Shown here: positions 4,775-43,605 of the stretch, one piece after another | Layout: each line of letters starts with the position of its first letter | Position numbering within the stretch: the stretch's first letter is position 1 | Source: Candidatus Eremiobacter antarcticus | GTDB taxonomy: Bacteria > Vulcanimicrobiota > Vulcanimicrobiia > Eremiobacterales > Eremiobacteraceae | NCBI GenBank assembly: GCA_003244105.1 | Contig: QHBK01000017.1 | Span: forward strand, 6,907-70,906 | DNA length: 64,000 nucleotides | Direction: 5' to 3' | Program-made: the position numbers and the translations under genes | Notes under the pieces: generated by a model | The model's input: only the letters and a program-made list of their open reading frames with translations | Databases searched by the model: none | What the model was told of the DNA's origin: nothing

Positions 4775-6067
4775 TCACATATGCGCGCGCAACGCGCGGA
4801 GGATCTCTTTGGGCGCAAGCTGTTTTCCGTACATCAGCACACCGACCCGGTAGAGCTTGGCGGCGAGCAGCGTGAACAGCCATATCGCCACGAGCGAAGC
4901 GCCGATGGACACCCCCACTTGCCAGAGCGGCACATTGGAAGTGGCGACGCGAGCGAACATGACCATCGGGCTCAGCATGGGGATGAGCGAGCTCCAGACC
5001 ACGATGGGTTTGTCCGGATCCATGAGCACGAGCATGGAGAGCATGTACGCGGCCACGATGGGCAGTGTAAATGCGCCGCTGCTCTGCTGCAGGTCCTCGG
5101 CTTTGGTCGCTAAAGCGCCCACGCCCGCGAACATGGTCGCGTACGTGAAGAAGCCCAGCAGAAAAAAGACGAGCAGATACAGCCACGTCAGGAACGGCAC
5201 CGTGAGGATGCTCAGGCTTTGCTGGCTTGCAGCGGCTGTCGTGTGGACGCTGTTCACCAGCCGGTCGCCCCACTGGGCAGCCGCTGCCACATGGACGAGC
5301 GCGGCCGCCAAGCCGATGATCAGGAGCTGCACGATGGCGAGCGTGCCGATGCCGAAGATCTTGCCCGCCAGCAATTGCGAAGGCCGCACCGCGCCGATCA
5401 TCAGCTCCATGACGCGGTTGGATTTTTCTTCGATGACGCCCTGAGCGACGTAGATGCCGTATAAGATGACGGAGATGTACATCAGGAGCAGGAGGAAGTA
5501 GACGAGCACCTGCGAGTTGGTCTGCTCCGCTTCCGTGCGGTACCGGTCGTTGAGGTTGACGGTGGAGAACGGGAAGTCGATCTCGCTTTGCGGATGCATG
5601 CCCTGGGAGTGCGCGGCGTCGGTCACGATGACGGCGCGCAGGAGGCGCTGCTTGAGGTTGTCGCCTTCGTCCAAAGCGCTCGATTGACGAGGATAATAGG
5701 TGAACGCGAGATCGCGCTGCGGGTTCAAGTACGCGACGAGCGCGGCATCGTACGTGCGCGCGCGCAGCGCCGACTCCACGCCGGGAGGCAAGTGCGAGCC
5801 ATGAGAGCGCTGCGGCAGGACGGTCAGATGATAGCGGTCGCTTTGGCCCTTTAGACTCAAAGAGTCGGCGACGGTCTTTGCGATGCGCGCGTCGGGCGCG
5901 ACGATCGCCAAGCGCGTGGAAAACGTGCTGCTCAGCAGGCCGAAGATGATCGACATGAACGAGAGCCCCACGATGAGCAAGACGCCCAGCGCGGTGCCGA
6001 TGATGAAGCTCTTCTGCTTGATGCGCTCGACGAACTCGCGTGCCGAGATGATGAGAACCGTCTTCAT
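4775..6067 (-). CDS. ABC-2 family transporter permease (NatB-like)
   Basis: Multi-TM protein MKTVLIISAREFVERIKQKSFIIGTALGVLLIVGL... with a large extracytoplasmic loop and C-terminal TM bundle. Start chosen at M106 of the track ORF (ATG 6067) so it overlaps the ATPase stop by 4 nt; the upstream 105 codons are an extension in the ATPase coding region. Confidence 0.8.
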   Translation of the reverse strand: MKTVLIISAREFVERIKQKSFIIGTALGVLLIVGLSFMSIIFGLLSSTFSTRLAIVAPDARIAKTVADSLSLKGQSDRYHLTVLPQRSHGSHLPPGVESALRARTYDAALVAYLNPQRDLAFTYYPRQSSALDEGDNLKQRLLRAVIVTDAAHSQGMHPQSEIDFPFSTVNLNDRYRTEAEQTNSQVLVYFLLLLMYISVILYGIYVAQGVIEEKSNRVMELMIGAVRPSQLLAGKIFGIGTLAIVQLLIIGLAAALVHVAAAAQWGDRLVNSVHTTAAASQQSLSILTVPFLTWLYLLVFFLLGFFTYATMFAGVGALATKAEDLQQSSGAFTLPIVAAYMLSMLVLMDPDKPIVVWSSLIPMLSPMVMFARVATSNVPLWQVGVSIGASLVAIWLFTLLAAKLYRVGVLMYGKQLAPKEILRALRAHM

Positions 6068-28640: not shown

Positions 28641-30365
28641 TTACACTTCCATCACGACCGGGACGATCATGGGCCGGCGCTTGGTGCGGTCGAAGACGAA
28701 TTTCTGCAGCCCCTTGTGGACGTGCTCGCGGATGGTCGTCCACTCGGTCAGGCCGTTTGCCGCTCCGCCTTCCATGATGACGGATGCCTCGCGCCGCACG
28801 TCCTCGAGCAGCCCATCCGAATCGCCGCCGCCATAGGTGAAGCCTCGCGATGTGATGTCCGGACCCGCGAGCACTTTTCCGTCGACGCTGTCGATCGTCA
28901 CCGTGACGACGATCATGCCGTCGGCGGACAGGTGGCGCCGGTCGCGCAAGACGACGTTGCCGACGTCTCCCACGCCGAGCCCGTCGACGTAGACGGGAGC
29001 GCCCGAGATCTTGCCGTCATGACCTGCGCTTGTCGCCGTGAACTGGACGACGTCCCCATTCTCGACGACGAAGATGTTCTCGGGCGGAACGCCGGTGCGC
29101 TCGGCTAAGCGCGCGTGCTGGACGAGCATGCGGTACTCGCCGTGCACCGGGATGAAATACTTTGGCCGCACCAAGTTGAGCATCAGCAGCAGCTCTTCTT
29201 GGCAGCCGTGGCCCGAGACATGCGCCATGCGCTGCTTTCCATAGATGACCGTGACGCCCAACTTGAACAGGTTGTTGATGGTGCGCCCCACGCTGCGCTC
29301 GTTGCCGGGGATCGGCGTCGCGGAAAGGATCACCGTGTCGCCGCGCTTGAGCTGCACGCGCCGGTGATCGTTCACGGCCATGCGCACGAGCGCCGATGTC
29401 GGCTCGCCTTGGCTGCCGGTCGTGCAGATGACGACTTTATCGTCGCGGAAGTTGTCGAGCTCGTGTTCGCGGATCTGCATGCCCGGCGAGATCTGCAGAT
29501 AGCCGTGCTCGAGCGCGATCGAGCTGATATTCTGCATGGAACGCCCGACGAAGCAGACCTTGCGGTCGTAACGCGCGGCCGCGTCGATGGTCTGCTGCAG
29601 ACGGGGCACATTGGAAGCGAACATCGTGATGATAATGCGGCCGGCGCATTGCGCGAAGATGTCGTTGAAGGTCTCGCCCACCACGCTTTCCGAAAACGTA
29701 TGGCCGGGCACTTCGGCGTTCGTGGAATCAGAGGACAGCAGCAAGACGCCTTCGCGCCCGAATTGCGCCAGCGATGCCATGTCCGTCGGCTGACCGTCGA
29801 TCGGCGTCTGATCGAACTTGAAGTCGCCGGTGTGGATCACGGTGCCGAGCGGCGTTCGAATCGCCAGGCAACACGAGCCTGAGACGCTATGAGTCACCGA
29901 GATGAACGTCACCTCGAGCCGCCCAGCCTGGACCTCGACGCCGGGATCGGTGACGCGCAGATCTGCAACGTTCAGGAGCTTGTGCTCTTTCAGCTTGCCG
30001 CGCAAGAGCGCGAGCGTCACGTCCGTGCCGTACACCGGCACGTTGAGTTGTGCCAGAAAGAACGGCACGCCGCCGACGTGGTCTTCATGCGCGTGCGTCA
30101 GGAAGAGTCCGCGAACTTTATGGCGCTTCTCGACGAGATACGACGCGTCATTGATGACGAGATCGACCCCCAGCATCTCTTCTTCCGGGAATTGCACGCC
30201 GGCGTCGACGACGATGATGTCGTCTTGCGTCTCGTAGACCGTGGTGTTGCGGCCGATCTCGCCGCAGCCACCGAGCGGAATGACCCTGAGGTACTCACCC
30301 GAGGGCGTGACTAAAGGCTCGTAGGGCATATCGCCCTTCGCCTTCGCGAAGAACTCGTGCAGCAT
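28641..30365 (-). CDS. rnj: ribonuclease J (metallo-beta-lactamase / beta-CASP RNase)
   Basis: LRVIPLGGCGEIGRNTTVYE...FLTHAHEDHVGGVPF (HxHxDH motif), beta-CASP region and C-terminal domain; 574 aa. Confidence 0.92.
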   Translation of the reverse strand: MLHEFFAKAKGDMPYEPLVTPSGEYLRVIPLGGCGEIGRNTTVYETQDDIIVVDAGVQFPEEEMLGVDLVINDASYLVEKRHKVRGLFLTHAHEDHVGGVPFFLAQLNVPVYGTDVTLALLRGKLKEHKLLNVADLRVTDPGVEVQAGRLEVTFISVTHSVSGSCCLAIRTPLGTVIHTGDFKFDQTPIDGQPTDMASLAQFGREGVLLLSSDSTNAEVPGHTFSESVVGETFNDIFAQCAGRIIITMFASNVPRLQQTIDAAARYDRKVCFVGRSMQNISSIALEHGYLQISPGMQIREHELDNFRDDKVVICTTGSQGEPTSALVRMAVNDHRRVQLKRGDTVILSATPIPGNERSVGRTINNLFKLGVTVIYGKQRMAHVSGHGCQEELLLMLNLVRPKYFIPVHGEYRMLVQHARLAERTGVPPENIFVVENGDVVQFTATSAGHDGKISGAPVYVDGLGVGDVGNVVLRDRRHLSADGMIVVTVTIDSVDGKVLAGPDITSRGFTYGGGDSDGLLEDVRREASVIMEGGAANGLTEWTTIREHVHKGLQKFVFDRTKRRPMIVPVVMEV

Positions 30366-30407
30366 CAGCCCGTTATTTTGGCGGTCGCCGGCGTTGGCCT
30401 GCCGCGC

Positions 30408-30956
30408 TCACAACGCGGTTGCCTTCCATGTCAGCTGCGCGGCGTCGAGCGCTCGCGGACACAAAAGCTCGATGGTCGTCTCTTCGTCTGGGCGCAGCTG
30501 CACGATGGTGACGGCCGAGCCCTCTTGACCGTCGCGTGAACGCACGTGCAGCTCGAGCACAGCCGACAGCTTCACGTGACGACGGTTTATCACGCGAGCT
30601 CGCACGATCGGACTGCCTAAGAAATCTTTGGTCACAAACGCGCTGAGAACGGCAAGACGGGCGTCCAACTCGTGAACCGCGCCATCGGCAAACGCAGGTG
30701 TCTCGGTACGGGCAGCAATCAAGAAGTCGCGCAGCTCCGCCTCCCGGCGCTCCATCATGGCGACGCGCAAGAGCCGCGCGACGCGCCGGCGCAGCGCCAG
30801 CTCCGCCGCTTGACTTGCACCTGCCGCTTTGGCGCCTATCGCGCCAGATCTCAGCGAGCGGGCGTGATGCTTTTTGAAATGCGGCGCCTTCGCCGCGTGC
30901 GGTTGAGCGTGTGGCCAAGCCGTCGCCCACACCAGGGCCATAATCACGATCAGCAT
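30408..30956 (-). CDS. hypothetical secreted protein
   Basis: Start taken at MLIVIMALVWATAWPHAQ (signal-peptide-like), transcribed divergently from the GntR operon. The longer track ORF begins 50 codons upstream. Confidence 0.45.
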   Translation of the reverse strand: MLIVIMALVWATAWPHAQPHAAKAPHFKKHHARSLRSGAIGAKAAGASQAAELALRRRVARLLRVAMMERREAELRDFLIAARTETPAFADGAVHELDARLAVLSAFVTKDFLGSPIVRARVINRRHVKLSAVLELHVRSRDGQEGSAVTIVQLRPDEETTIELLCPRALDAAQLTWKATAL

Positions 30957-31013
30957 GGAGGGTTTATCCCTCGGCGGCTTCGGGCGGCAACGCCCGGGAG
31001 GGCTCAAGAGTGC

Positions 31014-31061
31014 TTGACAACCCACTGACGGTATGTATAATTGTCTTAATTGCTTAAGACA
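31014..31061 (+). promoter_or_regulatory. sigma70-type promoter (TTGACA-16 nt-TATAAT) followed at once by a perfect inverted repeat TGTCTTAA-ttgc-TTAAGACA, the candidate operator of the downstream YtrA-type GntR regulator
   Basis: TTGACA at 31014-31019, TATAAT at 31036-31041, palindrome 31042-31061. This is the only AT-rich patch in a GC-rich intergenic region, ~35 nt upstream of the regulator start. Confidence 0.7.
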
Positions 31062-31095
31062 ATAGGACAGAGAAAACTCCAAACCGTGACGCGCC

Positions 31096-31467
31096 GTGTT
31101 TCGCATCAGTGAAGCCAGCGGAATCCCGGTCTATCTCCAACTCAAGGAGCAGGTGTTGCATCTCATCGCCCTCGGCAGGTTACGGCCCGGCGATCAGCTT
31201 CCGACGGTGCGGGAAGTCGCCGTGGACTTGTCCATCAACCCCAACACTGTCAACCGCGCGTACGCAGACTTGGAGCGCGACGGCTACCTCACGAGCAAAC
31301 GCGGGCGCGGCACGTTCGTCAGCGAGCCTGTGGCCGGCAAAGGCGCTCACGCGCAACAGGACAAGCTGCGCGACATCTCGCGGCGGGCGCTCGCGGAATG
31401 CGATCTCTTCGGGTTCACGGCCGATGAACTGCTGCGCGCCATCAAGCGGCTGAGCCATGCGCCCTGA
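31096..31467 (+). CDS. GntR-family transcriptional regulator, short YtrA-like subfamily
   Basis: 123 aa. Winged-HTH block PVYLQLKEQVLHLIALGRLRPGDQLPTVREVAVDLSINPNTVNRAYADLERDGYLTSKRGRGTFV, then only a short C-terminal helix pair as in YtrA-type regulators. GTG start. Confidence 0.85.
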   Translation: MFRISEASGIPVYLQLKEQVLHLIALGRLRPGDQLPTVREVAVDLSINPNTVNRAYADLERDGYLTSKRGRGTFVSEPVAGKGAHAQQDKLRDISRRALAECDLFGFTADELLRAIKRLSHAP

Positions 31468-31514
31468 AGCGCAACACACCATCCATATCCATGCATAGAC
31501 GGAGGCACCATCTC

Positions 31515-32486
31515 ATGCCAGTGATCACGACGATTCCCCCCACGCCGCCGTCGGGCGCCGCAGTGACCGCCGGACCGCAAGCGCCGCACGTCGGCAATGC
31601 GATCTCTTGGCTGATCGCCGCGATCTGCGTCGGCGCCGGCATCGCTGCGACCATCTTCTCGGAGCAGCCGCTGTACGCGTTCGTCGGCCTTATCCTTGCC
31701 CTGCTCGCCGTGACGTCCATCCAGATCGCGAAGGCGTGGGAAAAGGCGGTCGTGCCGAGACTGGGCCGTTTTCAGGGACTCGTCGGGCCGGGCATCTTCA
31801 TCATCGTTCCGGCGGTTGACAACGTCACCGCTTGGATCGATCAACGCGTTCAGACGAGCACGTTCATGGCCGAGCAAACGCTCACCAAGGACACGGTTCC
31901 GGTGGACGTCGATGCGGTGCTGTTCTGGGTGGTGTGGGACGCGAAAAAGGCTGCTCTCGAGGTCGCATCCTACCGCGACGCCATCGGCTGGGCCGCACAA
32001 ACGGCGCTGCGCGACATCATCGGCACGACCAATCTTGCCGAACTGCTCTCGAACCGCCAAGCGATCGACGCGCATCTGCAACAAGCGATCGACGCGCGCA
32101 CGACGCCTTGGGGGATCACCGTGCAGTCGGTCGAGATCCGCGACATCAAGATCCCTGAAAACCTGCAGGACGCGATGTCACGACAGGCGCAGGCCGAACG
32201 GGAGCGCCAAGCCCGAGTGATTTTGGGAGATGCCGAGCGGCAAATCGCGGAATTATTCCTTGAGGCGGCGAAGTCGTACGTCGATAATCCTATCGCGCTT
32301 CATCTGCGCGCGATGAACATGTTGTACGAAGGCTTGAAGGAGAAGGGCGCGATGATCGTCGTTCCCAGCACCGCGGTTGAGACGATGGGTCTCGGCACCA
32401 TCTCCGGCTTGGCGGCTTTGAGCGGCGCCCGCGCGGGGCTCGCTCCCGACGAGGCGCAGGCCGCTTCCAAAGCGGACGCCTCTTAA
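31515..32486 (+). CDS. SPFH/band-7 (stomatin-like) membrane protein
   Basis: N-terminal TM helix then SPFH domain (IFIIVPAVDNV...VPVDVDAVLFWVVWDAKKAALEV...ITVQSVEIRDIKIPENLQDAMSRQAQAERERQARVILGDAE). GGAGG lies 8 nt before ATG 31515. Confidence 0.88.
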   Translation: MPVITTIPPTPPSGAAVTAGPQAPHVGNAISWLIAAICVGAGIAATIFSEQPLYAFVGLILALLAVTSIQIAKAWEKAVVPRLGRFQGLVGPGIFIIVPAVDNVTAWIDQRVQTSTFMAEQTLTKDTVPVDVDAVLFWVVWDAKKAALEVASYRDAIGWAAQTALRDIIGTTNLAELLSNRQAIDAHLQQAIDARTTPWGITVQSVEIRDIKIPENLQDAMSRQAQAERERQARVILGDAERQIAELFLEAAKSYVDNPIALHLRAMNMLYEGLKEKGAMIVVPSTAVETMGLGTISGLAALSGARAGLAPDEAQAASKADAS

Positions 32487-32513
32487 GAGAAGACATAGAG
32501 AAAGGATGACCAC

Positions 32514-33215
32514 ATGCTTTTTCGGGTCCTGATGATAGCGCTCGCGCTCGGCGGCAGCTCGGCGTCTGCCGCGTTGGCTGCCGATGCGCCGCCTGCGCCA
32601 CCGGACGGCACGTACAGCTATTCCATCGATCGCGCCTCCGCGAACATCGGCACGTCGACCGTCACCGTAAAGCGATCGGGCGACGCGATCATGGTGCACG
32701 AGACGCAGGCGATGCCGGCCCAAAAGTTCGCCGTCACCGTCGATGAGACGCTGGCCGGCTCGCAGCTCGCGCCGAAATCGTACGTCGGAAACTATACGAT
32801 GGAAGGAGGAACTCCAGTGGTGGTGCGCATGAGCTTCAACGGATCGCGCGCAGACGCCACGGTTGACGGCGCGTCGGGTTCGACGTCGCTGAAGCTGCCG
32901 CCACGCATCACGTCGGGTTACGTCATCGAAGGCGCGCTCTTGACCGGCTTTTTGTTTCTGCCCGCACAACTGCACGCTTCCAGGGCGACGGCCTTTGCCG
33001 GCATCGTGCCGAGCAAGCTGACGCAGGTCACGAATACGGTGGATCGCGGCATGAGGCCGGTGCGGCCGCCCGGCGCGCCTGCCAACGACATCGCCGTATC
33101 CATTCGCGGGCCTGTCGATTTTCAAGAGTGGTACGATCCTACGACGTTCGTGCTCGACGCTGTGTCCGTGCCCTCCCAAAACGTCCTCATCCACTTGACG
33201 AAAAGGAGTGGCTGA
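32514..33215 (+). CDS. hypothetical secreted protein (signal peptide, beta-rich)
   Basis: MLFRVLMIALALGGSSASAALAADAPPAPP signal peptide; no recognisable family; coding-like codon usage. Confidence 0.6.
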   Translation: MLFRVLMIALALGGSSASAALAADAPPAPPDGTYSYSIDRASANIGTSTVTVKRSGDAIMVHETQAMPAQKFAVTVDETLAGSQLAPKSYVGNYTMEGGTPVVVRMSFNGSRADATVDGASGSTSLKLPPRITSGYVIEGALLTGFLFLPAQLHASRATAFAGIVPSKLTQVTNTVDRGMRPVRPPGAPANDIAVSIRGPVDFQEWYDPTTFVLDAVSVPSQNVLIHLTKRSG

Positions 33216-33217
33216 AT

Positions 33218-33940
33218 ATGGCGGTTGATGAGCGCGAGATAACTCCCGCGCAGCGGAGCAGCGGCCTGGCCAAGGCGCTGTCGGTGATCATCAGCCCCAA
33301 AGCCGCCTTCGAACAGCTCGCGGCGATGCCCGCTTGGGGCTGGGCGGCGATCATCGGCATCGCTTTGACGCTCGGAGCGGTGTTGCTGTCACTGCACGCG
33401 CAGTCGCATCTCGTTTCGGTCATGCAGGACCAACGGATCGCGCAAATGCCGAGCGAGCAACAAGCCGCAGCCCGGACTCAGCTTGCGAAGTTCGCTTCGC
33501 TGAGCAGTATCTTCATCATCATCGGCGCGCTGGTCGGGCCGTGGCTTGCCTGGCTCATCGCGGCAGTCGTGTTTATCATTGCGGCGGCCTTGGGCGGCGG
33601 CACGGCGACGTTTGGGCGCGCTTGGGTGGCTGCCGTGAACTGCTACATCGTCTACGGGATCGCGGGTCTGGTGAACGCCATCATCCTCTCGCTGCGCGAT
33701 CCGTCGACCGTGAACTCGATGGCGGACGTCATGTCGCTGCCGTCGCTTGCCATGATCGTGCACCCGGGGATCAAGCTGACGGCCTTTCTGTTCAATTACA
33801 ACGTTCTGTATATCTGGTACTACGTGGTCGTCGCGATCGCGCTGTACATCATGTTGAAACTTTCGCGCACCGCTGCCATCGTCACGGCGGTCCTCTACAG
33901 CCTGATTTGGGCTCTGTATCTTTACGCCACCGCCAAGTGA
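33218..33940 (+). CDS. Yip1-domain integral membrane protein
   Basis: AAGGAG 7 nt before ATG 33218. Five hydrophobic helices with the Yip1/YIF1-like arrangement (PAWGWAAIIGIALTLGAVLL...IFIIIGALVGPWLAWLIAAVVFII...). Confidence 0.7.
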   Translation: MAVDEREITPAQRSSGLAKALSVIISPKAAFEQLAAMPAWGWAAIIGIALTLGAVLLSLHAQSHLVSVMQDQRIAQMPSEQQAAARTQLAKFASLSSIFIIIGALVGPWLAWLIAAVVFIIAAALGGGTATFGRAWVAAVNCYIVYGIAGLVNAIILSLRDPSTVNSMADVMSLPSLAMIVHPGIKLTAFLFNYNVLYIWYYVVVAIALYIMLKLSRTAAIVTAVLYSLIWALYLYATAK

Positions 33941-33944
33941 GAGG

Positions 33945-35378
33945 ATGAGGCAGCGACCGTCTGCGCAAGAGCGCGCAGCAGCGTGCGGAATCGCCGGGCT
34001 CCTCTTGTGCGTTGCCCTTGATTCATCGCCCGCGGCGGTCCGCGCCGAGGCGATGCCCGCGCCTAGCCCCGGTCCTTCGATGACGCTGAAGCAAGCCGTC
34101 GATTTCGCGCTCGCGCACAACCCGTCCATCGTTCAGGCGCAGGCGCAAGCGATCGCCGCGGCGGCGCTGCTGACCCGCAACCGTTCCGGGCAGCTTCCGC
34201 AGGTGGCGGCCAACGCCCAGTCGCTGCTGCAGCGCCAGAGCGCCAACAATGCAGGGACGTTCGCTCAGTTCGGACTGCAGCCGACGGCGAATTTCTCGCA
34301 GAACACGAGCCAATTGCTGGGCACAGCCAATGTGATCAATTTCACTTCGACCTTGGAAGCGCGCCAAGCGAAGCGGTCCTACGATGCCGCCGTGCAGAAC
34401 GTGCGGCTGACACGCCAACAGACGACGCTGGCCGTGGAGAGCGGCTACTATGCGCTCGTGCAAGACGCCGACCTTGTCAAGCTGGCAAACGAAGACCTCG
34501 CCTACCAGCGCACCCTGCGCGACATCGCAGACGCAAATTTTCGCGCCGGCAAAGTGGCCGGCATCGACAGGCTCAAGGCCCAGGTGCAGCTCACGTCAAG
34601 CCAGCAGCGCCTGGCGTCCGCACAAGCGGACGTCGACGATGCCCGTCAGAACCTCGCGCAGCTGATCGGCGCGCAGCCGGCGCAAGGCTTCCTTCTGCCC
34701 ACGACCGTCGAGCTGCCGGTCTTGCCGTCTCTCGATCGAGCGGGGCTCGAGACGCTCGCGCTTTCCCAGCGGCCCGAGGTCGCGATCGCGCAAGCCAACG
34801 TGGACAACGCGCGTTACGCCAATGCCCTCGTCGACGCGCCGAACCGGCCGGTCGTGCAGCTGAGCGGCGGCTGGGGCAATCAGACGTCGCCCACGGCCAA
34901 CGCTTTGGCATTCGACCAATGCACGCTCGCGAACCAGAATCTGCCGCTTGCGGTGGCGCCGCTGAATTGCTCGCCGGGCGCCTCGCACTTCTACAACGTC
35001 AGCCTGTCGTCGACGTGGAGCTTGCCACTGCTGGATTGGGGCACGGTGCATGCGGCCCATCTGAGCGCCAGAGCCACCATCGACTCCAACCAGGCCAACT
35101 TGGATGCGGCTCGCAGGCAAGCCGTCGTCGATGTGGATGAGGCCCTGCGGCGCGTCGAAGTCCAGCGCCAAAACCTCGCGCTGGCCGGCGCCAACGCCGA
35201 TATCGCTAAGCAAGTGGCCCAGACGTCTCAAGTGCAGTACAAAGTCGGTCTGATCGGCCAGATCGAAGTGACAGCAGCGCAACAGACGTATTTGCAGGCA
35301 GCCAGGGACTATCTGATCGCGCAGATCGGCTACGTGTTGTCGGCGGAAAAACTGAAGCTGGCGACGGGCTCGCTGTGA
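33945..35378 (+). CDS. TolC-like outer membrane efflux protein (OEP family)
   Basis: Signal peptide, then two-repeat alpha-helical/beta-barrel OEP architecture (LKQAVDFALAHNPSIVQAQAQ..., coiled-coil heptads, LTAAQQTYLQAARDYLIAQIGY). Confidence 0.85.
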   Translation: MRQRPSAQERAAACGIAGLLLCVALDSSPAAVRAEAMPAPSPGPSMTLKQAVDFALAHNPSIVQAQAQAIAAAALLTRNRSGQLPQVAANAQSLLQRQSANNAGTFAQFGLQPTANFSQNTSQLLGTANVINFTSTLEARQAKRSYDAAVQNVRLTRQQTTLAVESGYYALVQDADLVKLANEDLAYQRTLRDIADANFRAGKVAGIDRLKAQVQLTSSQQRLASAQADVDDARQNLAQLIGAQPAQGFLLPTTVELPVLPSLDRAGLETLALSQRPEVAIAQANVDNARYANALVDAPNRPVVQLSGGWGNQTSPTANALAFDQCTLANQNLPLAVAPLNCSPGASHFYNVSLSSTWSLPLLDWGTVHAAHLSARATIDSNQANLDAARRQAVVDVDEALRRVEVQRQNLALAGANADIAKQVAQTSQVQYKVGLIGQIEVTAAQQTYLQAARDYLIAQIGYVLSAEKLKLATGSL

Positions 35379-35413
35379 CCGGTTTCCGGTAGATCGCAAG
35401 GACGCATACGCGC

Positions 35414-36967
35414 ATGCCGAAATGGCTTCTGATCCTTCTCGTGGCCGCAGGCATCGCCCTGACGATCCTTGTCGGCGCACTCGCGCACCGCGGCGGCCAG
35501 GCGCAAAGCGTGGGCACGATGACGGTCCACCCCAGCACGCTGGTCGTAAAGCTGCCGGAGAACGGCATCGTCTCGCTGCCCCAGACCGCCACGATCGCCG
35601 CGCAATCCACCGGGCCGATCACCTGGATCGGCGTGCATGAGGGCCAACGCGTGAGCCCGGGCGATCTCTTGATGCGGTTGAACGACCGGCAGATCTCGGC
35701 CACCGTCAGCCGCGACAGCGCGGCGCTGGCGCAAGCCGAAGCCGGCCTGCGAAAAGCGGAGCAGACCGCGGCGGTCTCGCCGAACACGAACGTTCAGAAC
35801 GTCGCGCAAGCCCAAGAAACGCTGCTGGCCGCGCAAGCAAAGCTCAAGGCCGACATCAACGGCAAACGAGCAGGGCAGCTGTCGGGGACCGTATCGGGCG
35901 CAGGCTTCGGCTTGAACGGCCAGTCGCAACTGGTCGAGCAGCAGCAAGCGCTTTCCGTGGCCTCGTCGCAACTCCGAACGGCAAAAGAGCGCTACGACGG
36001 CGACAAGGAGCTGTACCGGATCAACGCGTTGGCGCGCCAGCAGCTCGACGCCGACCGAGCTGCCTACGAGCAGGCGCTTTCCGCGAAATTAGCAGCGCAG
36101 CGTCAATACGATCTGACCCTGCGGCAGCTGCGCGATAACTCCGGACAGCTCGATAGCCAGATCGAGGCCGACCGTCATGCCGTCGAAGGCGCCCGAGCGG
36201 CTCTGTCTTCCGCCCAGCTGCAGTCGAAGCAAGACACAGCGGCGGTCGACTTGCGCTCGGCTCAAGCCGGAGTCGACTCGGCGCGCGCGCAGCTCCAGTA
36301 CGACGAGGAGATGCTGGCCGACACTCAGGTGAGGGCGCCGTTCGACGGCGTCATCCAGACGATCGGAAGCACCCCATCATCCAGCGGCGCCTCGAGCGTG
36401 CGCCTGTCGGTCGGCGATGCGGTGCAGCCGGGTCAAGCGCTGTTCACGATCGCGGGCGCCGGTCCCATGATCGTAAGGGCGCAAGTGGACGAGCAAGACA
36501 TCATCAACGTGCACGTCGGGCAGCACGCGTTCATATCGGGCGAAGACTTTCCCGGACGGACGATCGTGGGAACGGTCGTGCGCATCGCTCCGGTGGTGAT
36601 CGCTCAGAACCAGGGGACGACGTCTGCCAAGAACGTGGAGACGACGATCGCTCTCCCCCGCACCTATCCGTTCCTGCGCGACGGCATGTCCGCCGACGTC
36701 GACGTCATCACGGGCAAAACGGCGCACGCGTTGACCGTTCCAAGCTCCGCGGTGGTGAACGAGGGCAAAAAGCGCTTCGTCTTCGTGGCCAAAGACGGCA
36801 AAGCGCGCAAGACGCCGGTCCGGCTTGGCCTCGCCGGCGACACCGACGTGGTGGCCATATCCGGCCTGCACGCAGGCGACGCGGTGATCTTGAGCCCGGC
36901 CGGCCTCAAGGACGGGCAGAAAGTGTCGGCTTCCGCGGCGACGCCGGCGCCCTCACCGAGCGTCTGA
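35414..36967 (+). CDS. periplasmic adaptor / membrane fusion protein (MacA/HlyD family) with unusually long coiled-coil hairpin
   Basis: N-terminal TM anchor, biotinyl-lipoyl-like half (GIVSLPQTATIAAQSTGPITWIGVHEGQRVSPGDLLMRL), ~250 aa of coiled coil, second lipoyl half (VRAPFDGVIQTIG), beta-barrel and membrane-proximal domain. Confidence 0.88.
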   Translation: MPKWLLILLVAAGIALTILVGALAHRGGQAQSVGTMTVHPSTLVVKLPENGIVSLPQTATIAAQSTGPITWIGVHEGQRVSPGDLLMRLNDRQISATVSRDSAALAQAEAGLRKAEQTAAVSPNTNVQNVAQAQETLLAAQAKLKADINGKRAGQLSGTVSGAGFGLNGQSQLVEQQQALSVASSQLRTAKERYDGDKELYRINALARQQLDADRAAYEQALSAKLAAQRQYDLTLRQLRDNSGQLDSQIEADRHAVEGARAALSSAQLQSKQDTAAVDLRSAQAGVDSARAQLQYDEEMLADTQVRAPFDGVIQTIGSTPSSSGASSVRLSVGDAVQPGQALFTIAGAGPMIVRAQVDEQDIINVHVGQHAFISGEDFPGRTIVGTVVRIAPVVIAQNQGTTSAKNVETTIALPRTYPFLRDGMSADVDVITGKTAHALTVPSSAVVNEGKKRFVFVAKDGKARKTPVRLGLAGDTDVVAISGLHAGDAVILSPAGLKDGQKVSASAATPAPSPSV

Positions 36968-36977
36968 GCTACCCGTC

Positions 36978-38177
36978 ATGAAATTCTGGGAGCTGTTCGG
37001 CGTCGCTGTACAGACGCTGTGGACGCACCGCCTGCGTTCTGCGCTCACGATGATCGGCATCGTCATCGGAACAGCTGCGGTCATCGCCATCTTCGGCCTC
37101 GGCCAAAGCGCTTCGTCGGCCATCGGCGGGCTCTTGGGGATGTTCGGCGATCAAGGCATCTACATTCTTCCGGATCAAACAGCGGCTCGCGCCGGGCAGA
37201 CGCACCTCGAATGGCATGACGTCGCGGCGCTGCGAGACGGCTGTACGCGCTGTGCCAAGGTCTTTCCATATTATAGCGGGTCCTATACCATCCGCAGAGG
37301 GCACACGCGCGACGCCTTTGGGCTCTCGTCCGACACCGATTACATCACGGACAAGCTGCCGATGGCCGAGGGCCGGCGCTTCACCGCAGAGGACGTCGCA
37401 GGGGCGCGACCGGTGTGCGATCTGCTGTGGGATGCGAAGAAAAAGCTGTTCGGAGACGGACCCGCCGTCGGCCAGTTCGTGCGCATCGCCGGGCGGCGCT
37501 TCTTGGTGGTGGGCGTGTACAGCAACATCAGCGCCGGTGTTTTCAACGCGTTTGTCGGCAGCGGCGAGACGATTCTGATCCCGTATACCACCTACCGCAA
37601 TCTCGGCGGCGCAACGATGTTGGGGCTGCAGATCTATGCGCAAGCCGGCGCTGCGTCCGGGCAGGTGATCGATCAGGCCGAGGGCATCCTCAAGCGCATG
37701 CACGGCCAGCGCGTGCACTACCAATCGGTCGACACGAGCCAACAAGGCTCGGTTTTTCTCAACGTCGTCGCATATGTCGCGGCCGGCGTCTCAGCGATCG
37801 GCGCCATCGCGCTCGTGGTCGGGGGCATCGGCGTCATGAACATCATGATGGTCTCCGTGATCGAACGCACCCGCGAGATCGGCATCCGCAAGGCGATCGG
37901 CGCCACGCGCAGCGACATCTTGCTGCAGTTCCTCACGGAGTCGATCGCGATCACGCTGTTGGGGGGCGCCATCGGAACGCTGTTGGGGATCGCGGCTGCG
38001 CTCCTCGGAAATGCGCTCTTGATCTCCCAGTTCGCGGGCGCGAGCGCAGCCATCCACTGGGTCCCCATCCTAGCCATGGCGCTGACATCTTCGGTCGCCA
38101 TCGGGCTGTTCTTCGGCACCTATCCGGCGGTGCGCGCCTCCCGCTTGTCGCCCATCGACTGTTTGCGCCATGAATGA
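36978..38177 (+). CDS. ABC transporter permease, MacB/FtsX family (permease 1)
   Basis: N-terminal TM helix, large periplasmic MacB_PCD-like domain, C-terminal FtsX 3-TM bundle (GGIGVMNIMMVSVIERTREIGIRKAIGATRSDILLQFLTES). Confidence 0.88.
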   Translation: MKFWELFGVAVQTLWTHRLRSALTMIGIVIGTAAVIAIFGLGQSASSAIGGLLGMFGDQGIYILPDQTAARAGQTHLEWHDVAALRDGCTRCAKVFPYYSGSYTIRRGHTRDAFGLSSDTDYITDKLPMAEGRRFTAEDVAGARPVCDLLWDAKKKLFGDGPAVGQFVRIAGRRFLVVGVYSNISAGVFNAFVGSGETILIPYTTYRNLGGATMLGLQIYAQAGAASGQVIDQAEGILKRMHGQRVHYQSVDTSQQGSVFLNVVAYVAAGVSAIGAIALVVGGIGVMNIMMVSVIERTREIGIRKAIGATRSDILLQFLTESIAITLLGGAIGTLLGIAAALLGNALLISQFAGASAAIHWVPILAMALTSSVAIGLFFGTYPAVRASRLSPIDCLRHE

Positions 38178-39403
38178 CGGAAAGCGGCAACTCGGTGGTT
38201 CATAAAACTGCCGAATTTCTGCGTCAGGCGATCGAGACGCTGTGGAACAACCGATTCCGGTCGTTGCTGACAATGCTCGGGCTGATCATCGGCGTCGGCT
38301 CGGTCATCGCCATTCTCGCGGTGGGCGATGCCACAAATCGTTCAGTGCAAAACCTGCTCTCGCAATACTCGCAAGCGTCGAGTTTCGTGGTCGCCAAGCA
38401 GACGCAGCCTGATTTCCAAAACGCGGCCATCCGCTACACGGACGCCCGAGCAGTGGCCAAGGCCGTGCCGCAGGTCAAAGCGGTCATCCCCATCATGGTG
38501 ATCCCCATGACGACGACCGTGCGGCACCGCACCAAGACCATCACCGTCATCACGGCCGGCGCGGGCGTCGGCTTTGACGCAAGCGCGCTTGAGGCTGGGC
38601 GCCGCTTCACTCCGCTGGAAGTCGCCGCGCACCGGCACGTCTGCATCTTGTCGTACGACGCGCGCAACACCATCTTCTCCCCCGGCGCCGCGGTCACCGG
38701 AAGCAGCGTGCGGCTGAACGGAAGCTATTACACCGTGGTCGGAGTCCAAGCCAAACCGCTCAACGCGGGGCTCCTGCAAAGCGACAGCGGTTCGGAGACG
38801 GTCACGGTGCCCTACACGCTCATTCCAGAGTTCGGTTATTCTTACGTGGCGGGACTGTCCATCGTGAGCGATCCGGAGCATGTCACGCAAGACGGCAATG
38901 CGGCCATCGACGCGCTCAAGAAAATCCACGGTCAGCGCTCGCAGTACCAAGAGCGCGACATCAAGACACTCAACGAGGGCATCGCCAAAGTCTTCACCGT
39001 GTTGACCGGGGTCATCGGCGTCATCGCCGGCATCTCCCTTTTGGTGGGCGGGGTCGGCATCATGAACATCATGCTCGTGTCGGTGACCGAGCGGACGCGC
39101 GAGATCGGCATTCGTAAGGCGGTGGGCGCCGCGCGCACGGATATTCTGCTGCAGTTCTTGAGCGAAGCTTTGGTCATGTGCTTGGCAGGCGGGCTCATAG
39201 GCCTGTGCGGCGGCGTCGGCCTCGCGGAGCTTGTCATCCACACGCTCATCATCAAGCTCACGGGAACGGTCGTCGCATTTTCTTGGGCGCCCATCGTGAC
39301 GATCGCGGTGGTCTTTTCCGCCGGCGTGGCGCTCGTGTTCGGCACGTATCCGGCCGTGCGCGCATCCTACCTCGATCCCATCGAGTGCTTGCGCTTTGAG
39401 TGA
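38174..39403 (+). CDS. ABC transporter permease, MacB/FtsX family (permease 2, distinct paralog)
   Basis: Same architecture as permease 1 but divergent in sequence (GGVGIMNIMLVSVTERTREIGIRKAVGAARTDILLQFLSEA). Start overlaps the previous stop (ATGA). Confidence 0.88.
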   Translation: MTESGNSVVHKTAEFLRQAIETLWNNRFRSLLTMLGLIIGVGSVIAILAVGDATNRSVQNLLSQYSQASSFVVAKQTQPDFQNAAIRYTDARAVAKAVPQVKAVIPIMVIPMTTTVRHRTKTITVITAGAGVGFDASALEAGRRFTPLEVAAHRHVCILSYDARNTIFSPGAAVTGSSVRLNGSYYTVVGVQAKPLNAGLLQSDSGSETVTVPYTLIPEFGYSYVAGLSIVSDPEHVTQDGNAAIDALKKIHGQRSQYQERDIKTLNEGIAKVFTVLTGVIGVIAGISLLVGGVGIMNIMLVSVTERTREIGIRKAVGAARTDILLQFLSEALVMCLAGGLIGLCGGVGLAELVIHTLIIKLTGTVVAFSWAPIVTIAVVFSAGVALVFGTYPAVRASYLDPIECLRFE

Positions 39404-40145
39404 GACGCTCGCGCAGCCGCTGTCCGCTCGGGGCATCCCTTCTGTGCAGGAGCGCGCCGTCATCGACATCACCGACATGACCAAGGTCTACGAGCTCGGC
39501 GACATCAAGGTACCGGCGCTGCGGGGAGTTTCGTTCCGCATCGCGGCCGGCGACTATGTCGCCATCATGGGTCCGTCCGGCTCGGGCAAGTCGACGTTGA
39601 TGAACATCATCGGCTGCCTCGATCAGCCGACCAGCGGGATCTACCGTCTGGACGGCATCGACGTCGCAAACTTGGACGATCGGGAGCTGGCTGCCATCCG
39701 CCTGAGCAAGCTCGGCTTCGTGTTCCAGGGTTTCAACCTGCTCGCGCGCACCACGGCGCTGCGCAACGTCGCCCTGCCCTTGTTCTACGCCGGCGACCGC
39801 GACCGAGACAAAAAGGCTCAACGGGTGCTGGAGAAAGTGGGCTTGGGCGACCGGGTGCAGCATCGCCCGAACGAGCTCTCGGGAGGTCAGCAGCAGCGGG
39901 TGGCCATCGCGCGAGCGCTTGTCAATGACCCCGCGGTGTTGCTGGCGGACGAGCCGACCGGCAACTTGGACTCGGCGACCGCCGAGGACATCATGGCGCT
40001 GTTCGCGGACCTCAACAGCGAAGGCCACACCATCATCATCGTGACGCACGACGACGACGTGGCAAGCCACGCGCGCCGCATCATCCGTTTGCGAGACGGG
40101 CTGGTCATAAGCGATGAGAGCGGCGCGAGAAATCGTCCCCTGTAG
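39396..40145 (+). CDS. ABC transporter ATP-binding protein, MacB/LolD-type
   Basis: Walker A GPSGSGKST, Q-loop, signature LSGGQQQRVAIARAL, Walker B LLADEPTGNLD, H-loop THDDD. Overlaps the upstream permease by 8 nt. Confidence 0.92.
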   Translation: MSETLAQPLSARGIPSVQERAVIDITDMTKVYELGDIKVPALRGVSFRIAAGDYVAIMGPSGSGKSTLMNIIGCLDQPTSGIYRLDGIDVANLDDRELAAIRLSKLGFVFQGFNLLARTTALRNVALPLFYAGDRDRDKKAQRVLEKVGLGDRVQHRPNELSGGQQQRVAIARALVNDPAVLLADEPTGNLDSATAEDIMALFADLNSEGHTIIIVTHDDDVASHARRIIRLRDGLVISDESGARNRPL

Positions 40146-40175
40146 GGCGTTCCGACCTCTGCCGCAACCCCAATC

Positions 40176-40209
40176 TTGACGGTTAGCACTCTCGGTGTTA
40201 AACTGCTAA
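40176..40209 (+). promoter_or_regulatory. CIRCE-like inverted repeat (HrcA-operator type) overlapping a candidate promoter upstream of htrA
   Basis: TTAGCACTC-tcggtgtta-AACTGCTAA at 40183-40209 versus consensus TTAGCACTC-N9-GAGTGCTAA (left half 9/9, right half 7/9). TTGACG at 40176-40181 and TAAACT at ~40198-40203 could serve as -35/-10. Confidence 0.55.
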
Positions 40210-40404
40210 CGCAGTTACGGCTATCGCGTTCACGCGCTTCGGGACAAGCCGGATTCCCCGTCTTTTGGCAACAATTCGGTTCGCTCGCGGGTAAGTATGT
40301 ACGTGTCGATCCAGTCGCAGTTCGTGCGGGCTACCTGCGCGCAGCATCGCCATGGGATAACGGCCTCCCATCCGCGGCCGGCCTTTACAGGAGTGAAACT
40401 AAAG

Positions 40405-41625
40405 ATGAATTCCCGAACTCGCACGTCGCTCGGCTTCGCGCTCATGGGACTGCTCGGAGTGCTGATCGGCGCATTCGTCGTGTCGCTTTTGGCCCCCAAG
40501 TTTTGGACGAGTAAAGAAGCGGCCGCCAACCTCATACCGAACGCCGCCTCGGCGGCGCCGATGCCGCTGAGCGGCGACAGTGATTTCGAACGGCGCATCG
40601 TCGCCGTCGTGAAGCGCACCGAGCCGTCCGTGGTCTTGATCAAGGCGACCGTCCACGGTCAGCAGCAGATCTACAACCCGTTCCAAAACGACCCGTTCTT
40701 CCGCCAGTTCTTCGGCGACCAAGTCCCCAACCAAGCCCAGCCCTTCACCGCAAAGGCGTCGGGCTCGGGATTCGTCTACCACCGGGATGGCGATACCGCA
40801 TACATCGCCACCAACGCGCACGTGGTCTATCAGGCCGACCACATCCAGGTCCTGTTATGGACGGGCCGTCAGTTGGATGCGCAAGTCGTGGGAGCGGACA
40901 ACAGCACCGACTTGGCGCTGCTGAAGATCCACGGCGCCAACCTGCCGCCCGCATTGCCGGCCGGCAACTCGAGCGCGCTGGAGCAAGGACAATTCGTGCT
41001 GGCCATCGGCGAGCCTGAATCATTCCAAAATTCGGTGAGCTTGGGCATCGTATCTGCGCTCCATCGCAGCAACATCACGGCCACCGGAGGCCCCGGCTTT
41101 CCGGCGTTTCATTATGAAGACATGATCCAGATCACGACGCCGATCAACCCCGGGAACTCCGGCGGCCCGCTGATCACGACTCGCGGTCAGGTCGTCGGCA
41201 TCAATGCGGTTGTCGCCGCGCAGGCGCAGGCGATCGGCTTCTCTATCCCCATCAACGCAGCGCAGCCGGTGCTGGCCGAGATTCAGCAGACAGGCCACGG
41301 CATCCATGTCGCGCACGCCTACATCGGCATCCAGATGCGCGCGCTCGACAAGCAACTCGCCAGCTACTTGGGCTACTCGGGATCGCAAGGCATCGTCGTC
41401 GTGAGCGTGCAGCCGGGCAGTCCCGCCGAAAAGGCAGGCCTGCAGATGCGCGACATCGTCTTGGAGCTCAATCACAAGAAGCTGAGCGATCCGGACGAGG
41501 TGCGCGCGGCCATCGCCAAGCTGAAGGTCGGCGACAAGGTCACGCTGCTGGTGTGGCGCGACGGAGGCTTGCAGCCGTACGCCGTCACGCTCGGCGACCG
41601 GCCCGATACGCTGCCGCAAGGTTAA
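40405..41625 (+). CDS. htrA: HtrA/DegP-family periplasmic serine protease with one PDZ domain
   Basis: Catalytic triad contexts TNAHVV / DLALLKI / GNSGGPL, and C-terminal PDZ (GIVVVSVQPGSPAEKAGLQMRDIVLELN). N-terminal TM/signal anchor. AGGAG lies 7 nt before ATG 40405. Confidence 0.9.
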   Translation: MNSRTRTSLGFALMGLLGVLIGAFVVSLLAPKFWTSKEAAANLIPNAASAAPMPLSGDSDFERRIVAVVKRTEPSVVLIKATVHGQQQIYNPFQNDPFFRQFFGDQVPNQAQPFTAKASGSGFVYHRDGDTAYIATNAHVVYQADHIQVLLWTGRQLDAQVVGADNSTDLALLKIHGANLPPALPAGNSSALEQGQFVLAIGEPESFQNSVSLGIVSALHRSNITATGGPGFPAFHYEDMIQITTPINPGNSGGPLITTRGQVVGINAVVAAQAQAIGFSIPINAAQPVLAEIQQTGHGIHVAHAYIGIQMRALDKQLASYLGYSGSQGIVVVSVQPGSPAEKAGLQMRDIVLELNHKKLSDPDEVRAAIAKLKVGDKVTLLVWRDGGLQPYAVTLGDRPDTLPQG

Positions 41626-41673
41626 ACGCGCTCTAGGCGAAGTCAGCGACAGACTCTACAAAATCGTATATTG

Positions 41674-41696
41674 GCTCGCCGGCACAGCCGGCGAGC
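41674..41696 (+). promoter_or_regulatory. perfect 10-3-10 inverted repeat GCTCGCCGGC-aca-GCCGGCGAGC in the dnaK leader, just downstream of a TATATT -10-like hexamer
   Basis: Read directly at 41674-41696, 23 nt upstream of the dnaK ATG. Could be an operator overlapping +1 or an attenuator hairpin. Confidence 0.4.
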
Positions 41697-41718
41697 GTTC
41701 TCGGAGGAAAGAAACACC

Positions 41719-43605
41719 ATGGCAAAAGTCGTCGGGATCGACCTCGGCACCACCAACTCCGTCGTCGCTTTCATGGAAGGCACCACGCCGACGGTCATCA
41801 CGAACGCAGAGGGCAGCCGCCTCACCCCGTCGGTGGTGGCGATCACCAAAGGCGGTGACCGTCTGGTCGGCCAGCTCGCGAAACGGCAGGCGATCACCAA
41901 TCCGGACCGCACGATCTCGTCGATCAAGCGCTATATGGGCAGCGATCACAGAGTCACGATCGACGGCAAGTCGTACACGCCGCAAGAGATCTCGGCGATG
42001 ATCCTGCAAAAGCTGGCCGCGGACGCGAGCACGTATCTTGGCGAGAAAGTCACCAAGGCGGTTATCACGACGCCCGCATACTTCAACGATGCGCAGCGCC
42101 AGGCCACCAAGGACGCCGGACGCATCGCTGGCTTAGACGTGTTGCGCATCATCAACGAGCCGACGGCGGCTGCGCTCGCGTACGGCCTCGACAAGAAGGG
42201 CAACGAGACGATCCTCGTCTGGGACTTGGGCGGCGGCACGTTCGATGTCTCGGTTCTCGAGGTCGGCGACGGCGTCTTCGAGGTGAAGTCCACCAATGGC
42301 GACACGCACTTGGGCGGCGACGACTACGACAAGCGCATCGTCGACTGGCTCGTGTCCGAGTTCAAAAAAGAGCAGGGCATCGATCTTTCAAGCGACCGCC
42401 AAGCCCTGCAGCGCTTGACCGAGGCGGCCGAAAAAGCCAAGGTAGAGCTGTCCTCCATGGTCCAGACGTCGATCAATCTGCCGTTCGTGACGGCCGATCA
42501 GAACGGCCCGAAGCACCTGGACTACACGCTGACCCGCGCAAACTTCGAGCAGCTGACGAACGATCTCACCGAGCGCTGCAGAAAGCCGTTCGAAAACGCA
42601 ATCGCGGACGCGAAGCTCACGGTGGACGACATCAAAGAGGTCGTCTTGGTCGGCGGTGCCACGCGCATGCCGATCATCCAAGAACTGGTCAAGTCGCTCA
42701 CGCACAAGGATCCTCACCAGGGCGTCAACCCCGACGAAGTGGTGGCGGTCGGCGCTGCCATCCAAGCCGGCGTGCTGTCGGGCGAGGTTCGAGACGTCGT
42801 GCTGCTGGACGTCACGCCGCTGTCCATGGGTCTTGAGACGCTGGGCGGAGTCATGACCAAGCTGATCGAGCGGAACACGACCATCCCGACGCGCAAGTCG
42901 CAGACGTTCACCACCGCCGACGATGGCCAGACCTCGGTCGACATCCACGTGCTGCAAGGCGAGCGGGAGATGGCGCCCGATAACAAAACGCTGGGCCGCT
43001 TCCGGCTGGAAGGCCTCCCGCCCGCGCCGCGCGGCGTGCCGCAGATCGAAGTGACGTTCGACATCGACGCCAACGGCATCACGCACGTGAGCGCCAAGGA
43101 CCTGGGCACCGGCAAGGAACAGCGCATCACGATCACGTCGTCGAGCAATCTCAACAAGGAAGAGGTCGACCGCATGGTGCGCGAGGCCGAATCGCATTCC
43201 GCCGAGGACAAGCGCAAGCGCGAAGAGGCCGAGACGCGCAACGAAGCGCTGCGGCTTCAATATTCCGCGGAGAACACGCTCAAGGAGGTTGGAGACAAGG
43301 TCTCCGGCGCCGACAAAGCTGAGGTCGAGAAAGCACTGGACGACGTGCGCTCGCTGCTCAAGGCCGGCAGCCTCGAAGAGCTCAAACGCGCTACCAGCAG
43401 GCTGCAAGAGGCTTCCTACAAGCTGGCCCAAGTGGTCTATCAGAAGACCGGTCAGGCGGCCGGCGCGGAAGCGGGCGCTCCCACGGACGGCGCGGCCACA
43501 AACGGCGCAACGGGCGCGCAGGAACCCGAAGGCGCGGGCGCCGCGGCGGCCAGCGGCGGCTCAGCCGATGGCGATGTCATCGACGCCGAATTCAAGGAGA
43601 GATAG
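41719..43605 (+). CDS. dnaK: molecular chaperone DnaK (Hsp70)
   Basis: [18 protein letters not shown]..., [10 protein letters not shown], and the C-terminal substrate-binding and lid domains. GGAGG lies 9 nt upstream of ATG 41719. Confidence 0.97.

Follow-up and report, generated by a model that had tools for sequence, protein, structure and literature searches.

How are two non-identical permeases, encoded in tandem with a single ATPase, arranged in a MacB-type pump? The question is raised by positions 36978-40145 of a 64,000-nucleotide stretch (the window, meaning the whole stretch of DNA that was analysed) from a metagenome-assembled genome (MAG) of Candidatus Eremiobacter antarcticus (Eremiobacterota, formerly WPS-2), where the genes of two permeases, P1 and P2, are followed by that of an ATP-binding cassette (ABC) ATPase. 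As judged from the sequence, the locus is a real, conserved operon for an envelope-spanning, ATP-driven efflux pump of the MacB type (type VII ABC), and the best-supported reading is that P1 and P2 probably pair as a heterodimer. The three genes are only the last of a nine-gene unit beginning at 31096. Six of its genes are conserved, namely those of a YknW-like protein, an outer-membrane factor (OMF), a periplasmic adaptor, P1, P2, and the ATPase, and three more precede them here: a GntR-family regulator, an SPFH protein, and a small secreted beta-barrel-like protein. The window proteins are PZR60785-PZR60788. An earlier reading of the letters and open reading frames (ORFs) alone, the sequence-only reading, had coupled the permeases and the ATPase to an adaptor and a TolC-like duct. 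Both of these are indeed encoded alongside, upstream of 36978, but its gene list lacked the YknW-like subunit, whose gene is present in 6/6 syntenic loci, and the true extent of the operon.

Family identity of the permeases and the ATPase

P1 and P2 each contain a MacB_PCD domain (Pfam E 1e-29 to 1e-31) and an FtsX domain (~3e-19), and PF12704 and PF02687 both score over cut-off in both proteins. The two are 38% identical over their full length. The sequence-only reading had proposed two non-identical permeases with a separate ATPase, to be abandoned if one permease were a pseudogene or the two were near-identical recent copies; neither is the case, both permeases are full length (399 and 409 amino acids (aa)), and the ATPase (249 aa) has its own gene. 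Among solved structures, P1 matched MacB (5lil_A, 2e-43) and LolC (1e-4), and P2 matched Spr0695 (5xu1_M, 4e-50), MacB (5e-46), and LolC (2.5e-6); over the two permeases together, the matches to MacB ranged from 1e-38 to 1e-46, and those to pneumococcal Spr0695 were 1e-40 and 4e-50.

A profile built from P1, P2, and 16 homologues gave E. coli MacB, scored by its permease half, 338 bits, versus 45 for LolC and 31 for LolE, which upholds the earlier assignment to MacB rather than Lol. In the opposite direction, the two permeases reached 33 and 28 bits on the lolCE equivalog model TIGR02212, whose cut-off is 362, and LolC and LolE are only 14-18% identical to P1 and P2. Membership in LolCDE is ruled out by these TIGR02212 and profile scores together with the adaptor and OEP genes upstream. 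E. coli LolCDE shares with the locus two paralogous type VII permeases, one ATPase gene, and an expected 1:1:2 stoichiometry; unlike the locus, it has no adaptor or OMF, belongs to another clade, and hands lipoproteins to LolA. On these scores, P1 and P2 are MacB-family proteins, and the resemblance to LolCDE is limited to the gene count.

The cytoplasmic loop between transmembrane (TM) segments TM2 and TM3, which makes contact with the ATPase in this family, carries the coupling-helix motif ERTREIGIRKA[IV]GA, which is invariant or nearly so in 18 homologues. The translated ATPase has intact motifs, including Walker A (GPSGSGKST), signature (LSGGQQQR), Walker B (LLADEPT), and H-loop (VTHD). 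In favor of a TTG start at 39396, an equal 8-nt overlap with the preceding permease recurs in the gene calls of three orthologous loci (L081, L083, and L084); the 222-aa start given by NCBI would, on our own reading of the sequence, cut off the first beta-strand. The fusion of the nucleotide-binding domain (NBD) to the N-terminus of the permease, as in canonical MacB, is not present, the ATPase being a separate gene as in YknYZ, Spr0694-0695, DevCA, and VarDEF.

Duplication and probable pairing of the permeases

We scanned one genome per species and obtained 80 loci with related permeases, which are the 80 best matches to the query and not a random draw; contig look-ups of database homologues added further loci. 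The usual order in the 80 sampled loci is adaptor, ATPase, and a single permease, and the ATPase is split from the permease in every locus with a detected ATPase and fused in none. Two tandem permeases occur in 11/80. Seven of these 11 are acidobacterial and form two clades of their own, three (L007, L043, and L051) represent further independent duplications of the permease, and L001 alone repeats the full architecture. The acidobacterial pairs were considered as the same architecture and rejected: no adaptor, ATPase, or OMF was detectable within 10 kb, and their clades are separate.

Six loci (the window, L081/L082, L083, L084, L088, and L001) share the order rnj, Yip1, OEP, adaptor, permease, permease, ATPase, htrA, and dnaK, although the P1 orthologues in them are only 38-65% identical to that of the window. 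The tandem P1 and P2 genes are retained in 6/6 of these loci, with stop and start overlapping or nearly abutting. We built a neighbour-joining tree of 102 permeases with E. coli LolC/LolE as the root and without L088, which was retrieved later. The P1 and P2 proteins of the five other syntenic loci group together in 99.5% of 200 bootstraps and split into subclades for P1 (84.5%) and P2 (88%). The pair therefore goes back to a single ancient duplication that came before these lineages separated, and neither copy has been lost since. Identities over equal species pairs are nearly the same for the two copies, namely 65% (P1) and 63% (P2) between the window and L081, and 51% and 52% between L083 and L001. 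Such equal rates indicate that neither copy is decaying. That one paralogue is degenerate or purely regulatory, leaving the other to work as a homodimer, has nothing specific in its favor beyond the generic fate of duplicates and is extremely improbable here: neither sequence is truncated, each retains its four TM segments and its periplasmic core domain, the coupling loops are 85% identical, the rates of evolution are equal, and all lineages have kept the two copies.

Two groups of weaker database matches, permeases at 39-42% identity (P0095-P0106) and adaptors at 35-40% (P0240-P0253), were considered as second systems in the same genomes. One member per group was placed, and both P0105 and P0246 sit in the same syntenic locus of a deeper lineage; the second-system explanation was rejected.

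The locus L001 (DATJHK010000018.1, 4235-16601), labelled Candidatus Limnocylindria of the Chloroflexota, has full synteny including the OMF gene. Either this MAG is mislabelled or misbinned, or an outer-membrane-type pump persists in a class of Chloroflexota; if the label is right, the locus would bear on the monoderm/diderm question for that phylum. Lineage-specific additions were also seen, such as two tandem Yip1 genes in L088 (4927-6421) and a DUF1648 gene between the adaptor and P1 in L084 (7546-8004).

The divergence between P1 and P2 is unevenly distributed. Identity is 85% in the TM2-TM3 coupling loop, 43-46% in the TM segments, and 26% in the periplasmic domain, a pattern that fits two subunits that would dock one type of ATPase but show different periplasmic faces. 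Six sites are fixed differently in the two paralogues (T32/V41, I49/V58, G57/S66, F260/I270, G270/V280, and A278/S288), and all lie in TM1/stalk or stalk/TM2. This is 6/6 of the paralogue-specific sites, compared with 19/72 of the shared conserved ones (Fisher p = 7e-4, from 16 P1 and 9 P2 sequences and a region delimited post hoc); a looser threshold gave 13/22 versus 23/97 (p = 0.002). The TM1/TM2-stalk helices close together in MacB upon ATP binding (PMC5985334), and we take TM1/stalk and stalk/TM2 as the dimer interface; the clustering suggests that this interface may be adapted to heterodimer formation.

The divergence of the substrate-handling periplasmic domains, the most diverged part at 26% identity, would also suit two alternative homodimeric pumps, P1-P1 and P2-P2, that share the ATPase, adaptor, and duct and have two substrate specificities. 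MacB, FtsX, YknZ, and Spr0695 function as homodimers (PMC5985334), and P1 and P2 each retain all the elements to work alone, including the coupling loop. We nevertheless consider this arrangement unlikely: the tandem co-retention and translational coupling in 6/6 deeply diverged lineages suggest equimolar production, the paralogue-specific substitutions fall in the dimer-interface helices and not in the substrate-facing domain alone, and the sole structurally known type VII two-permease systems, LolCDE, are heterodimers (PMC8277102). The P1-P2 heterodimer is likely because of the tandem co-retention, the periplasmic divergence, and the 85% identity of the coupling loop. Two reviews name LolCE as the sole heterodimeric case (PMC5985334; PMC8277102), and a structurally characterized heterodimeric MacB-type pump was not found in the literature searched.

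The YknW-like subunit, the duct, and the adaptor

A Yip1-domain gene lies directly 5' of the OEP gene in all six syntenic loci. In the window its ORF opens at 33128, and the ATG at 33218 agrees with the orthologues of 241-249 aa. The NCBIfam model YknW_fam (NF052650) gave the protein 65 bits against a cut-off of 110. A profile made from the Yip1 proteins of these loci matches the gene that immediately precedes the adaptor gene in yknWXYZ-type loci of Bacillales (L004, 5e-26; L065, 6e-17), as well as genes adjoining single-permease MacB-type systems (L077 and L062, the latter with an OEP gene). The clade of P1 and P2 groups with a set of lineages that includes permeases of Bacillales (YknZ-type, L004 and L065) and Clostridia, and the orthologous adaptors carry the YknX-type families PF25984 (BSH_YknX), PF25990 (Beta-barrel_YknX), and PF25989 (YknX_C). 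Because of these Yip1 profile matches, adaptor domains, and permease groupings, the most fitting description of the system appears to be a YknWXYZ-type pump in which the permease is duplicated and an outer-membrane duct is present.

Bacillus YknWXYZ, a pump that protects against the SDP toxin, resembles the locus in having a Yip1-type gene near a YknX-type adaptor, a split ATPase, and a MacB-type permease, and its yknW gene is directly upstream of the adaptor. YknW influences how the YknX adaptor assembles, protection from the SDP peptide toxin depends on it, and it is not found in conventional Gram-negative tripartite systems according to review (PMC5985334; PMC8277102). Unlike the window locus, which has two permeases and an OEP protein, the Bacillus system has a single permease, four components, and no OMF, and works in a monoderm.

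The OEP gene is kept in all syntenic loci, and its protein matches the TolC family and NodT models under their cut-offs. Eremiobacterota genomes are reported to contain genes for lipopolysaccharide (LPS) synthesis and BamA (PMC6664022), and for this reason we take the phylum as diderm; TonB-dependent receptors are also encoded on the syntenic contigs.

We modelled the adaptor with AlphaFold2 (31 sequences, mean confidence score (pLDDT) 77). The model has an N-terminal TM helix (residues 3-27) and lipoyl, beta-barrel, and membrane-proximal beta domains, and a Foldseek search with it returned MacA in MacAB-TolC on top (9qgy_G and 5nik_D), followed by AcrA, MexA, and EmrA. E. coli MacAB-TolC thus shares with the locus a four-domain adaptor with an N-terminal TM helix, the best structural match, as well as a permease of MacB_PCD and FtsX domains, and its mechanotransmission or bellows mechanism is presumed to be common to both. 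Unlike P1 and P2, E. coli MacB is an NBD-permease fusion that forms a homodimer, and TolC is encoded elsewhere.

The predicted hairpin has an up arm (92-121, 128-152, and 169-202), a tip (203-207), and a down arm (208-271 and 278-302). The insert between the two lipoyl half-domains was measured uniformly in 49 adaptors beside MacB-type permeases. The hairpin of the window adaptor had been put at ~250 aa and called exceptionally long. The insert is ~211 aa (residues 92-302), 2.4 times the 88 aa of E. coli MacA, which is also the sample median; it is long but shorter than first stated, and it belongs to the upper tail, ranking 3rd-4th of 49 behind Dehalococcoidia (330 aa) and Actinomycetospora (251 aa). 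The hairpin stem of E. coli MacA measures 70 Å (PMC5985334). Based on helix residue counts and a descending arm of 95 residues, we estimate that the hairpin here would reach ~140-150 Å if extended. The inserts of orthologous adaptors are 126, 163, 207, and 211 aa (including L081 8574-10004 and L083 6697-8004), and their alignment shows two length classes with matched indels of ~24 aa in both arms. Paired indels are a known route of coiled-coil lengthening (PMC4446572), and the orthologous hairpins imply pumps whose lengths would differ by tens of angstroms between related bacteria.

Cyanobacterial adaptors have inserts of 178-188 aa, and cyanobacterial DevBCA-HgdD is similar to the locus in its split ATPase, MacB-type permease, long-hairpin adaptor, TolC-like duct, and diderm Terrabacteria host. 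On another reading, the locus would not be a defensive pump but an envelope-biogenesis exporter that moves a lipidic component, such as a glycolipid or lipoprotein, across a wide periplasm to the outer membrane in the manner of DevBCA-HgdD, with the permeases in roles like those of LolC and LolE. We regard such a role as quite unlikely. DevBCA-HgdD has one permease, DevC, and the window proteins fall far under the cut-offs of the DevB and DevA models (TIGR02971, 49 vs 129 bits; TIGR02982, 190 vs 296 bits), which rules out membership in DevBCA. P1 and P2 are not of the LolC/E kind, the link to YknW and a repressor of the GntR/YtrA type point to an inducible stress or defence system, and the beta-barrel-like protein and the SPFH gene are absent in several lineages (an SPFH/Band 7 orthologue is present in L084 and absent in L081, L083, and L001).

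Operon map, precedent, and the proposed pump

The nine plus-strand genes at 31096-40145 are closely packed, with intergenic gaps of 2-35 nt (Table 1). The P1 stop and the P2 start share 4 nt (ATGA), and P2 and the ATPase overlap by 8 nt. Minus-strand ORFs over the region fall below the cut-off of the gene map for GC content at third codon positions, so that only plus-strand genes were retained, and are read as shadow ORFs of high-GC DNA. A terminator scan found 7 candidates versus 8.5 expected, which is background, and no internal terminator is claimed; Rfam gave no RNA element in the whole window.

Table 1. Features of the pump operon and its surroundings in the window
Feature	Start	End	Strand	Evidence or remark
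Sigma-70-type promoter-like site	31014	31041	+	TTGACA-16 nt-TATAAT, 12/12 to consensus
Perfect 10-bp inverted repeat ATTGTCTTAA-TTGC-TTAAGACAAT	31040	31063	+	Overlaps -10 box; candidate GntR operator (GT...AC type)
GntR-family regulator, YtrA/PmtR type, short (123 aa)	31096	31467	+	Pfam GntR 3e-18
SPFH/Band 7 membrane protein, accessory	31491	32486	+	Pfam Band_7 1e-34
Secreted all-beta protein, 233 aa, lineage-restricted accessory, unannotated	32514	33215	+	
Yip1-domain, YknW-like polytopic membrane protein	33218	33940	+	Pfam Yip1 1.7e-10
Outer-membrane factor, TolC-like exit duct, 477 aa by ORF	33945	35378	+	Pfam OEP 2e-41, two repeats
Periplasmic adaptor (membrane fusion protein), MacA/YknX-like, 517 aa	35414	36967	+	TIGR01730 170 bits, over cut-off
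MacB-type permease paralogue 1 (P1), 399 aa, 4 TM and periplasmic core domain	36978	38177	+	
MacB-type permease paralogue 2 (P2), 409 aa	38174	39403	+	
Single ABC ATPase (MacB/LolD/FtsE class), 249 aa from TTG	39396	40145	+	ABC_tran 5e-34
Heat-shock cluster htrA-dnaK-grpE-dnaJ-MerR/HspR-type	40297	45541	+	Synteny conserved
FtsX (308 aa) and FtsE (252 aa)	59199	60828	-	FtsX_Gpos 241 bits, FtsE 280 bits, both over cut-off

The promoter-like site stands 55 nt 5' of the GntR gene and is the sole 12/12 match within 30300-41800. The top NCBIfam match of the regulator is PmtR (71 bits, under the cut-off of the model), a regulator (repressor) of an ABC transporter that exports phenol-soluble modulins (PSM). 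The GntR gene holds the equivalent position in L081 and L084, where the TTGACA...TATAAT layout is found again 5' of it (at about 5148-5205 and 1657-1720, respectively), with TTGTCT/AGACAA half-sites placed likewise. The inverted repeat is a candidate autoregulated operator to which the GntR protein would bind, and the natural reading would be autorepression by the YtrA-type regulator, lifted by an envelope or antimicrobial signal. In L084, a direct repeat of ~68 bp in two copies lies 5' of the GntR promoter (about 1475-1600); it holds the GC-rich palindromes CCGCGGACC-TCATC-GGTCCGCGG and GGGCGAGC-GTT-GCTCGCCC and resembles a repetitive extragenic palindromic (REP)-like intergenic element.

The RNase J gene (rnj) is located upstream on the opposite strand. 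Downstream of the ATPase, a gap of 151 nt is followed by htrA, dnaK, grpE, dnaJ, and a MerR/HspR-type gene. With the SPFH gene inside the operon and the heat-shock cluster behind it, the pump stands in a setting of envelope and protein quality control. The FtsX protein of the window, its third FtsX-fold permease, belongs to FtsEX, the cell-division type VII ABC pair.

The layout, whose novelty had been implied at first, has a published and functional precedent. V. cholerae VarACDEF (VC1563 and VC1565-VC1568) consists of the adaptor VarA, the channel VarC, the permeases VarD and VarE, and the ATPase VarF (Lin et al. 2017, PMC5595328). Both VarD and VarE are MacB-like, with four TM segments and large periplasmic domains, and VarACDEF expressed in E. 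coli raised the minimum inhibitory concentrations (MICs) of macrolides 8- to 32-fold in a TolC/VarC-dependent manner (PMC5595328). Compared by published description, the window locus has the composition that defines the VarACDEF type, since a single operon encodes two MacB-like permeases, an ATPase, an adaptor, and an OMF. The gene order permease-permease-ATPase is also shared. Unlike the window locus, VarACDEF is proteobacterial, has the LysR regulator VarR and a linked metallo-beta-lactamase, and has no reported YknW/Yip1 partner. The duplication in the window is probably independent of that of VarD and VarE, because tandem duplications arose several times. A VarD-VarE heterodimer is likewise putative. 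A tblastn search with P2 for annotated two-permease operons of cultured bacteria in PLSDB plasmids gave only single-permease Bacillus-type systems or fused MacB. A tripartite pump with two permeases has thus been described and shown to function before; the layout is uncommon, with tandem permeases in the 11/80 sampled loci. Three things are new relative to the literature searched: a YknW-type subunit occurs together with a duplicated permease and an outer-membrane duct, the unit keeps a single chromosomal position throughout a little-studied phylum, and the adaptor hairpin varies markedly in length.

In the proposed pump, one P1 would pair with one P2 in the inner membrane, and both would dock one copy of the ATPase each via the nearly identical coupling loop, giving a stoichiometry like that of LolC-LolE-LolD2. 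A TM-anchored adaptor hexamer would sit on the two non-identical periplasmic domains, and its hairpin tube (~140-150 Å) would make tip-to-tip contact with the trimeric TolC-like duct. By analogy with Bacillus YknW, adaptor assembly may be modulated by the Yip1/YknW-like protein. By homology to MacB, the substrate would be taken from the periplasm or the outer leaflet and not from the cytoplasm; amphipathic peptide toxins or other membrane-active or lipidic compounds are the most likely cargo, and this is the weakest step. Transcription would start from the consensus sigma-70 promoter, with the YtrA-type GntR repressor of the operon bound to the palindrome until an envelope or antimicrobial signal derepresses it.

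Several observations weigh against this picture. The support for a contact between P1 and P2 is indirect, and the test for interface enrichment is small, with its region set after the sites were seen. The YknW-like protein is under the cut-off of its NCBIfam family. The hairpin helices break at 122-127, 153-168, and 272-277, and the hairpin may not be fully extended. A substrate clue was not found in the locus, which has no adjacent biosynthetic, bacteriocin, or resistance gene, and the fixed position between rnj and htrA-dnaK throughout the phylum resembles a housekeeping envelope function more than an accessory resistance pump. A far-reaching proposal, to which we assign a very low probability, is that in diderm Terrabacteria, Eremiobacterota among them, the phylum-wide fixed operon encodes not a drug pump but a dedicated trans-envelope conveyor of lipidated envelope material (lipoproteins or glycolipids). 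P1 and P2 may then split labour like LolC and LolE, the long and variable adaptor tube may bridge a wide periplasm, and the YknW-like protein may be an accessory for cargo handling, as may the LolA/RseB-like beta-barrel protein in lineages that have it. If true, this would be a Lol-independent route to the outer membrane.

The proposed efflux pump, with its probable P1-P2 heterodimer, extends the known architecture and does not overturn current understanding. The paired indels of the adaptor, on the scale of heptads and amounting to up to ~85 hairpin residues, may allow envelope width to be read from sequence in this hardly cultured phylum. The YknW-type subunit beside an outer-membrane duct offers a second setting for studying the unexplained role of YknW. 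If the P1-P2 heterodimer is obligate under a six-fold adaptor and a three-fold duct, the locus would encode a naturally asymmetric MacB pump, in which the roles of the two periplasmic domains in substrate capture and adaptor contact would be genetically separable, which is impossible in homodimeric MacB.

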